56,031 bases of DNA from a virus (lineage: Duplodnaviria > Caudoviricetes): IMG/VR virus record IMGVR_UViG_3300025653_000045, positions 1-56,031 of that record; one strand, written 5' to 3'. Position numbers and translations under genes: made by a program. Below the pieces are notes generated by a model. The model did not search any database and had not been told where the DNA came from. It worked only from the letters and a program-made list of their open reading frames with translations. Positions 21,648 to 21,795 of the stretch are shown here, one piece after another. Position 1 is the first letter of the stretch. The number at the start of each line of letters is the position of its first letter.

Positions 21648-21795
21648 GACATACTGATGAGCGCTGAATGCGCGAAACACCTTCGGTGAAATCGAGGATA
21701 GCTACCTCGACGTAACCAACGCTCCATCCCGTATCACGTGTAAGCCACGGGTCACTGCTGGGTCGCTGACGCAGGGGGCAGAGGGTGTCTATGTC
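21648..21795 (+). ncRNA. Hammerhead ribozyme 2 (type I) with large insert in stem III
   Basis: Stem I GACATA/TATGTC, CTGATGA, stem II GCGC-tgaat-GCGC, GAAA, stem III ACACCTTC/GAGGGTGT, GTC ending 21789. Confidence 0.87.

Follow-up and report, generated by a model that had tools for sequence, protein, structure and literature searches.

The virus record IMGVR_UViG_3300025653_000045, analysed here over its whole length of 56,031 bases (the window) and rated 92% complete, carries from ~20.5 to 37 kb on the + strand numerous small open reading frames (ORFs) without family matches, followed by replication genes that encode a BT4734-like/DnaB primase-helicase and a ribonucleotide reductase. Three predicted hammerhead ribozymes, HH1, HH2 and HH3, lie in this region, and the subject of this work is HH2, which holds a conserved, branched insert in its stem III and may release it as a trimmed RNA. 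The core pattern CTGATGA-N8-30-CGAAAC is found three times on the + strand and never on the − strand or in a backwards-read control, and the elements therefore stand above chance. HH1 (21595-21646, +), recognised by sequence reading and by the core pattern, is a compact type I hammerhead with stems I GGTACA/TGTATC, II GTCC-TCAAT-GGAC and III CACCC-TTCG-GGGTG and a predicted cleavage site after C21640; among the fetched loci, which are designated by L and a number, it is kept, with compensatory variants of stem III, in L004-L006, L026 and L027. HH2 (21648-21795, +) begins 1 nt past HH1 and is a type I hammerhead with a long stem III and predicted cleavage after C21789. HH3 (22189-22237, +) is a compact type I hammerhead with predicted cleavage after C22231 and homologues in L005 and L006, and its core CTGATGA (22195-22201) includes the stop codon TGA (22196-22198) of the ORF at 21974-22198, so that the ribozyme overlaps the gene end. 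The mRNA downstream of HH2 (21790-21977, +) would open with the leader UAUGUC-AAACUUCAAAUUCAUUUCCA, followed by a 53-aa ORF at 21816-21977; searches of the small proteins near HH2 against PHROGs and Pfam gave nothing informative. The leader motif CAAACTTCAA has 8 matches in the window, where 0.18 are expected, and precedes 7 starts on the + strand.

HH2 has the architecture of a type I hammerhead, with stem I open and stems II and III closed round the core. Stem I consists of 6 base pairs (bp) between GACATA (21648-21653) and TATGTC (21790-21795), the conserved core of CTGATGA (21654-21660) and GAAA (21674-21677), and stem II of the 4-bp hairpin GCGC-TGAAT-GCGC (21661-21673). The 5' strand of stem III, A-CACCUUC (21677-21684, +), pairs with 21781-21788, and its 3' strand GAGGGUGU with the cleavage nucleotide C21789 occupies 21781-21789 (+); the resulting helix has 8 bp (CACCTTC 21678-21684 with GAGGGTG 21781-21787, and A21677-T21788) and closes 96 nt (21685-21780). 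Both the A15.1-U16.1 pair (A21677-U21788) and a non-G nucleotide at H17 (C21789) are present. The core of the homologue in L025 reads CTGACGA, position 7 being the variable N, and the partner of U21682 at 21783 is G or A among the four homologues, a wobble-compatible change. The initial annotation, which was made from the letters of the window, described HH2 as a split hammerhead that closes only by long-range pairing, including GACATA/TATGTC. The long-range closure is indeed real, and its 8 bp, followed by UC and 6/6 pairs of stem I, are retained in three other contigs, but the word split overstates what is a hammerhead with a long stem III. In a scan of stem III spans over 144 sources, some of which overlap on the same contig, 252 cores passed the stem II filter; 190 of them had spans of ≤30 nt, 6 of 31-60 nt and 12 of >60 nt (among the last are the 6 treated in this work and 4 closures of 222-671 nt that are doubtful), and 44 had no closure by our rule. 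Spans above 30 nt were thus seen in 18 of the 208 cores for which a closure could be identified, and these counts make long stem III arms a recurring minority feature of phage hammerheads. Another hammerhead, HH-A (L025:1157-1321, −), has its stem III extended by a different, rod-like insert of ~111 nt, with a predicted minimum free energy (MFE) of −62.0 and z = −2.44. Its homologue L036:10983-11150 (+) keeps the insert and has a different stem II, and in both contigs HH-A is followed by a conserved hairpin leader and a tRNA-like element.

At gathering thresholds Rfam called none of HH1, HH2 and HH3, and the window gave only a tRNA. The best sub-threshold match was Hammerhead_3, at 32.8 bits against a cut-off of 48.5, in an alignment that spans the cleavage site of HH1 and the core of HH2. 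Since compact relatives also score below the cut-off (Hammerhead_1, 20.9-21.4 bits against 34), the Rfam model under-scores the whole clade. Twister, pistol and hatchet, candidates prompted by a UAAGC stretch, were rejected, none of them being reported by Rfam. We also observed that the stem II loop UGAAU (21665-21669) has a complement, UUCA/AUUCA, in the leader immediately past stem I (21799-21808); by eye, AUUCA stands at the same place of the leader in the compact HH2 of L009, L010 and L012, but not of L015. This pairing may be a stabilising pseudoknot of the kind described by Perreault et al. As a part of the reading set out below, and with the same slight lean in its favour, HH2 is predicted from its sequence to be an ordinary, constitutively active type I hammerhead.

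The relatives of this locus fall into those with and those without the insert. L004, L005 and L006 were found through the downstream 53-aa protein (85-89% identity); in them the leader AAACTTCAAATTCATTTCCAATG follows directly after HH1 and the whole 149 nt of HH2 and insert are absent. A scan for HH2 stem II returned 9 loci, of which 5 (L009, L010, L012, L013 and L015) carry a compact homologue of HH2, with the stem III hairpin CACCAC-GAA(R)-GTGGTG, the stem I 3' strand and leader as in the window and an identical or near-identical stem II, and 4 (L007, L008, L011 and L014) carry unrelated hammerheads. A second hammerhead core was found in 0/5 of the compact loci. A metagenome scan anchored on both conserved flanks, with a gap of 87-117 nt, yielded three contigs (L025, L026 and L027), each with HH2 and a homologous insert, located upstream of different genes. 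The four HH2 sequences align over 158 columns with a mean column identity of 95%, and their RNAalifold consensus recovers stems I, II and III with a branched insert, 43 pairs in total, with 99.4% of cells paired, a single broken cell and 5 pairs showing a one-sided, wobble-compatible change. By our count on this alignment (A2), variable insert columns number 5/50 among paired and 13/49 among unpaired positions.

In all four cases (4/4) the insert-bearing HH2 lies directly downstream of another processing element, a placement seen in none of the 5 compact homologues. In the window, L026 and L027 a 1-nt spacer separates HH2 from HH1, and in L025 a 9-nt spacer separates it from a tRNA-like element. 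The latter was judged by eye, from its T-arm and acceptor pairing, and is not called by ARAGORN or Rfam; its ~38-nt conserved leader is common to a stretch of L004, where it precedes a tRNA scoring 38.8 bits with the Rfam tRNA model.

The sequence features listed in the initial annotation were all found in place, including the direct repeat GGTG at 21685-21688 and 21784-21787 and four helices within the insert: TCGAGG 21692-21697 with CCTCGA 21705-21710, CCCG(T) 21728-21732 with (A)CGGG 21747-21751, CTGC 21755-21758 with GCAG 21771-21774, and GCTCC 21721-21725 with GGGGC 21775-21779. It had further proposed that deletion of 21689-21787 restores a compact hammerhead. Formally it does, the sequence left of 21689 ending in GGTG and that right of 21787 starting with TCTATGTC, but the product would have CACC-TTC-GGTG where the natural compact homologues have CACCAC-GAA(R)-GTGGTG. 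In the RNAalifold consensus the insert is divided into an arm, P_a (21685-21717, +), in which GGU (21685-21687) pairs with ACC (21715-21717) and encloses the hairpin UCGAGG-AUAGCUA-CCUCGA (21692-21710), and a 60-nt two-hairpin domain, D (21721-21779, +), that makes up the 3' two-thirds. The stem of P_a is invariant among the hammerhead-borne copies, with variation confined to its loop. D is closed by the helix P_b (GCUCC 21721-21725 with GGGGC 21775-21779) and contains the hairpin P2 (CCCG 21728-21731 with CGGG 21748-21751), whose large loop holds the palindromic hexamer CACGUG (21735-21740, +), and the hairpin P3 (CUGC-[UGG]-GUC-GCU-GAC-GCAG, 21755-21774). The insert is single-copy within the window. 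A search of 21300-22400 against Rfam in evalue mode (E ≤ 10) placed no family inside the insert (21685-21780); it thus matches no aptamer of a known ligand class at that level, in keeping with the earlier remark that it was not recognisable as a known riboswitch.

An nhmmer search of all fetched loci with a profile of the insert gave, besides the 4 known hammerhead-borne copies, one match only, at L004 5339-5392 (E=1.7e-9), the same contig appearing again as L050. This copy of D stands outside any hammerhead and lacks P_a. It belongs to a non-coding cluster of ~330 nt, where it is flanked on one side by a tRNA-like element and on the other by a second RNA whose 3' end is tRNA-like; relative to L083, L009, L006 and L047 it is a 74-nt insertion. 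We aligned the 5 sequences, 4 of them distinct, from both contexts (alignment A3). P_b is fully replaced and yet paired, GCYCY/GGGGC becoming GUUAUC/GAUAAC in L004; P3 changes from CUGC/GCAG to CUAC/GUAG, an exchange of G-C for A-U; and P2 (CCCG/CGGG) is invariant in both contexts. The fold comprises 17 pairs, with 100% of cells paired and 4 pairs changed on both sides, a result reached by 4/500 shuffles, and slid controls gave 37-44% of cells paired. The check that had been set beforehand, a homology search with covariation analysis of the insert, gave homologues in three contigs, D in L004 and 4 compensatory pairs. The sequences suggest that D, which also occurs without a hammerhead, is an autonomous fold.

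The hexamer in the P2 loop is CACGUG in the window, CCUAGG in L025-L027 and ACUAGU in L004, that is, three perfect palindromes; 3/3 mirror positions have changed on both sides with self-complementarity kept, which was reached by 7/500 shuffles. Because a loopless palindrome is unable to fold on itself, pairing between two RNA copies is suggested, and the sequences point to D pairing with a second copy through this loop as a kissing-loop dimer. The hexamer may alternatively be a palindromic protein site on DNA. The replacement of P_b with its pairing retained, the exchange in P3 and the maintained palindrome together point to selection on the RNA fold itself. Two further pairings were considered for D and discarded: AGCAA/UUGCU, proposed by ViennaRNA, for which the window has C.C at one position, and one half of the palindrome with the 3' strand of P3, which by eye is broken in the window and L004.

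The initial annotation had also held that a local decoy hairpin, CACC-UUC-GGUG (21678-21688, +), competes with stem III. We examined this with ViennaRNA on the RNA that would remain after HH1 cleavage (21641-21795), using a nearest-neighbour model that ignores tertiary contacts. The hairpin exists and is the predicted fold solely of the nascent prefix ending at 21690, being gone by 21700-21720, but it is weak; at equilibrium stem III pairs have probabilities of 0.86-1.0 and the decoy 0.0, and constrained ensembles reach −54.42 kcal/mol with stem III against −50.75 kcal/mol with the decoy. In this model the two are therefore not alternatives of comparable stability. Nor is D always coupled to a platform that it could control, as the L004 copy, without a ribozyme, lies between tRNA-like elements.

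D is uncommon. A covariance model (R1) run on 97 + 46 sources (879,833 + 413,489 bases, 1.29 Mb of fetched DNA) returned exactly the 5 known copies at E ≤ 6e-20, the next best matches having E=1.8-9.7. Exact-word scans, which would miss diverged copies, gave no copy of D or the insert in viral contigs beyond the L004 contig and 0 copies in GTDB genome contigs, so that a host origin of D was not found at that level of similarity. Blastn against GenBank phages gave no match for 20000-24000, and for the insert 20 records with a best E of 1 and coverage ≤30%, which is chance level; Rfam in evalue mode on the region, the related loci and the non-coding clusters returned nothing for the insert or the tRNA-like modules. 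The sporadic copies, 5 by R1 and none further by exact words, with D in one of ten whole records of relatives, thus mark D as a rare accessory module.

In light of these data, we lean towards the view that HH2 is a self-trimming cassette which, with HH1 or with an upstream tRNA-like element, releases an RNA of ~149 nt that carries an accessory non-coding module. HH1 would cut the polycistronic + strand RNA as soon as it is made, the tRNA-like element taking its place in one contig, and HH2 would close once its 3' strand appears ~100 nt later and then cut after C21789. The two cleavage sites would delimit an RNA of 149 nt (21641-21789, +) composed of the HH2 scaffold, P_a and D, with a 5'-OH and a 2',3'-cyclic phosphate as expected from hammerhead chemistry. 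The 53-aa gene would be left with a leader of 6 nt and AAACUUCAA, as in relatives without the cassette; the leader being the same with or without it, the cassette could sit in the operon without altering its neighbours. D would be the functional cargo, possibly acting as a dimer. Cleavage in vivo and dimerisation, like the release of the 149-nt RNA and any function of D, are inferred from the sequences. Of the two roles that the initial annotation had offered for the insert, RNA cargo gains support from the conservation of D, from its occurrence outside a hammerhead in L004 with compensatory changes and from the upstream processing elements in 4/4 cases, and with moderate confidence we regard it as a better reading than a natural aptazyme. 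A bolder extension, which we hold to be unlikely, is that phages of this group employ hammerheads as portable self-trimming holders of accessory non-coding RNAs and that the 149-nt product, in which D pairs with itself, is perhaps circularised by a host ligase and acts in trans in the course of infection, for example as a regulator or as a decoy against host defence.

Several observations weigh against the cassette. The 4 compensatory pairs all come from one divergent sequence, that of L004, with 5 copies of D known, and the structure of D was drawn after the sequences had been seen; among the 4 hammerhead-borne copies there are 0 compensatory double changes, pair-count and shuffle controls being powerless on that set. 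The MFE structure of D predicted by ViennaRNA is unlike the comparative model in 4/5 sequences, and the hexamer has an unpaired probability of only 0.03-0.12. A stronger predicted competitor than the decoy is the 5' hairpin UAUCAG/CUGAUG, which would mask the core of HH2, although it is not conserved in L025; stem I has a probability of 0.09 and the active fold costs ~1.7 kcal/mol relative to the ensemble. The insert alone has z = −0.09, with 94/200 shuffles at least as stable, and stability therefore favours neither switch nor cargo. The association of insert and upstream element is not phylogenetically independent. D was detected by R1 in only 1/10 of the relatives' whole records, and one record rated 100% complete is without it, which indicates that D is dispensable.

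An alternative, which we consider unlikely but by no means negligible, is a tolerated insertion without phage function: ~100 nt of DNA would have entered a permissive loop at the tip of stem III, either through microhomology-mediated recombination or in the form of a small selfish element, and would persist there because the ribozyme is left undisturbed. Short direct repeats are present at both insertion sites (GGTG/GGTG in the window and GGCAG/GCGGAG in L004), D is sporadic among relatives' records and absent from the syntenic site in L004-L006, the fold is no better than that of shuffles, long stem III arms occur in other phage hammerheads (the 18/208 closures above) and a different, rod-like insert occupies another hammerhead in L025 and L036. 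Against mere tolerance stand a P_b that is replaced yet pairing, the exchange in P3, a palindrome kept through 3 double changes and the fewer variable columns in paired than in unpaired positions. A refinement of the cassette reading, compatible with it and in our view quite improbable, is that a host RtcB-type ligase joins the ends of the 149-nt RNA and that the type III-like hammerhead so formed in the circle, crippled by a 3-bp stem I, leaves it stable. Ends with 5'-OH and 2',3'-cyclic phosphate are those that RtcB joins, so the predicted ends would suit this enzyme, and sub-threshold Hammerhead_3 matches run across the junction of HH1 site and HH2 core in the window (32.8 bits), L027 (32.8) and L026 (31.5), all below 48.5. 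The phage has no RtcB (PF01139) or RNA ligase (PF09414) in a search that covered phage proteins and not the host, and the tRNA-like boundary in L025 would leave no 5'-OH. Circular products were raised for clustered phage hammerheads by Perreault et al., where the passage concerned adds that they were sought and none detected (PMC3088659).

The idea of a natural aptazyme, in which the insert senses a ligand or protein and chooses between decoy and stem III, thereby gating cleavage and expression of the 53-aa gene, draws on a decoy hairpin that is invariant in 4 copies and is the predicted nascent fold up to 21690, and on the high, aptamer-like conservation of the loop and junction nucleotides of D. 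We nevertheless find it very improbable, and the sensor proposal of the initial annotation gained no support: no Rfam riboswitch or other family lies in the insert at E ≤ 10, the decoy has an equilibrium probability of 0.0 and is replaced once P_a is transcribed, the core is insulated by the 8-bp stem III, and D in L004 has no adjoining ribozyme or expression platform. Moreover, HH1 would cut 149 nt upstream regardless, so gating HH2 would merely lengthen the leader, and the same gene is presumably expressed, judging from sequence, in relatives without the element. A cross-acting tandem, in which the HH2 core pairs the 5' strand of its stem III with the 3' strand of HH1 stem III and cuts the HH1 site as a type III hammerhead, the long-range closure being incidental, would fit the sub-threshold Hammerhead_3 alignments in 3 tandem copies and a second possible closure given to the HH1 core by the closure scan. 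It appears scarcely credible, as its stem I would be 3 pairs and a mismatch, whereas the proper HH2 closure of 8 bp + 6 bp is conserved even in L025, where there is no HH1.

Further non-coding elements lie near the locus. A ~365-nt non-coding cluster occupies 24250-24615 (+), after the gene at 23794-24243, and comprises a hairpin, a tRNA-like element (GGGAGCG...GTTCGAATCCCAACCTCCC), a middle part variable among phages and a second RNA whose 3' end is tRNA-like. Its counterparts are L004:5205-5540, L006:3296-3858, L009:10441-10693 and L010:1210-1336, with others in L047, L072 and L083. The anticodon-arm position of the first tRNA-like element varies greatly in length among phages, and the second RNA (24523-24605 in the window) scores 21.8 bits with Rfam tRNA-Sec, below the cut-off; neither ARAGORN nor Rfam called any element of the cluster. 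Where L004 has D, L006 (3385-3650) and L047 (6845-7100) have, between two tRNA-like elements, an unrecognised ~230-nt non-coding module with no Rfam match at E ≤ 0.5. At its start (24240-24249, +) the cluster has TTGAAGTTTG, which overlaps the stop codon and exactly complements the leader motif CAAACTTCAA. Conserved in L004, L006, L010, L072 and L083, this sequence may serve as an antisense 'anti-leader'. A perfect hairpin, ACCTTCTGAGTTTACGAAGAAGGT, extended by TATATAC arms, is repeated at 22589-22612 and 24629-24652 (+), with a variant at ~21349-21380, and is also found at L004:3729-3762 and 5553-5576; the window has 2 exact matches where 0 are expected. Each time it is followed by the CAAACTTCAA leader and a start codon, so that it forms a second type of between-gene element besides the hammerheads, and may represent an RNase III-type site or an element associated with a promoter. 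Elsewhere in the window two very large ORFs on the − strand (37732-46857, 3041 aa, and 49408-53919, 1503 aa) adjoin a protein whose T7 gp14-like match is weak (E=3.4e-4, below the cut-off). Start codons of the early region mostly lack a Shine-Dalgarno sequence, and this scarcity, together with the BT4734-like N-terminal domain of the primase-helicase, fits a Bacteroidota host.

Several known systems resemble the proposed cassette in part. Allosteric ribozymes include engineered hammerhead aptazymes, glmS and the c-di-GMP-II riboswitch with its group I ribozyme, and like them HH2 has a structured domain grafted on a ribozyme helix. Engineered hammerhead switches use short, marginally stable bridges, whereas the bridge of HH2 is a stable 8-bp helix, its insert belongs to no recognisable ligand class and D also occurs without a ribozyme; the claim of a first natural hammerhead aptazyme is thus tempting but unsupported. 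The phi29 packaging RNA and the HIV-1 dimerisation initiation site are RNAs that pair through loops, and the hairpin loop of D likewise has a covarying self-complementary stretch. D shares no sequence or structural homology with either, its dimerisation being suggested solely by three palindromic variants, and we regard it as a new RNA motif of small size whose palindromic loop covaries.

Release of an RNA bounded by self-cleavage sites is also achieved by synthetic ribozyme-flanked cassettes. Retrozymes and other hammerhead circular RNAs (PMC4918200, PMC7229834) are retroelements of eukaryotes, 170-1000 nt long and flanked by identical ribozymes. The present element resembles them in that two self-cleavage sites would bracket a small non-coding RNA with predicted 5'-OH and 2',3'-cyclic phosphate ends; unlike them it belongs to a DNA phage, has two different hammerheads and a predicted 149-nt product, and circles are without support here. 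In the discontinuous type III hammerhead from the 3' UTRs of mammalian Clec2, helix I accommodates 150-1500 nt (Martick et al. 2008, summarised in PMC6155905). As in Clec2, the halves of HH2 are far apart and long-range pairing closes the ribozyme, but HH2 is a type I hammerhead of a phage, has ~96 nt in helix III and its insert is a conserved fold.

The closest comparison is with clustered hammerheads of prophages, which flank small genes and of which three tandem arrangements cleaved in vitro, according to the sections on such clusters in Perreault et al. 2011 (PMC3088659); their role is still called an open question in the corresponding part of PMC6155905. HH1-HH3 share with the type I clusters described there the consensus core, close copies flanking small genes and a presumed processing of polycistronic RNA. 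The literature consulted yielded no conserved structured domain in a phage hammerhead and no natural hammerhead aptazyme, with the reservation that the supplementary figures of Perreault et al. 2011 may show long stems. As far as those descriptions of phage clusters go, the difference is that here a conserved, ~96-nt branched RNA sits in stem III and that two copies 1 nt apart bracket a conserved non-coding RNA rather than a gene. In a sister phage the same RNA domain is bracketed by tRNA-like elements, which points to RNA release as a job of these processing elements, and if the bolder extension above were true, this would be the first phage hammerhead with a defined job, that of delivering an RNA.

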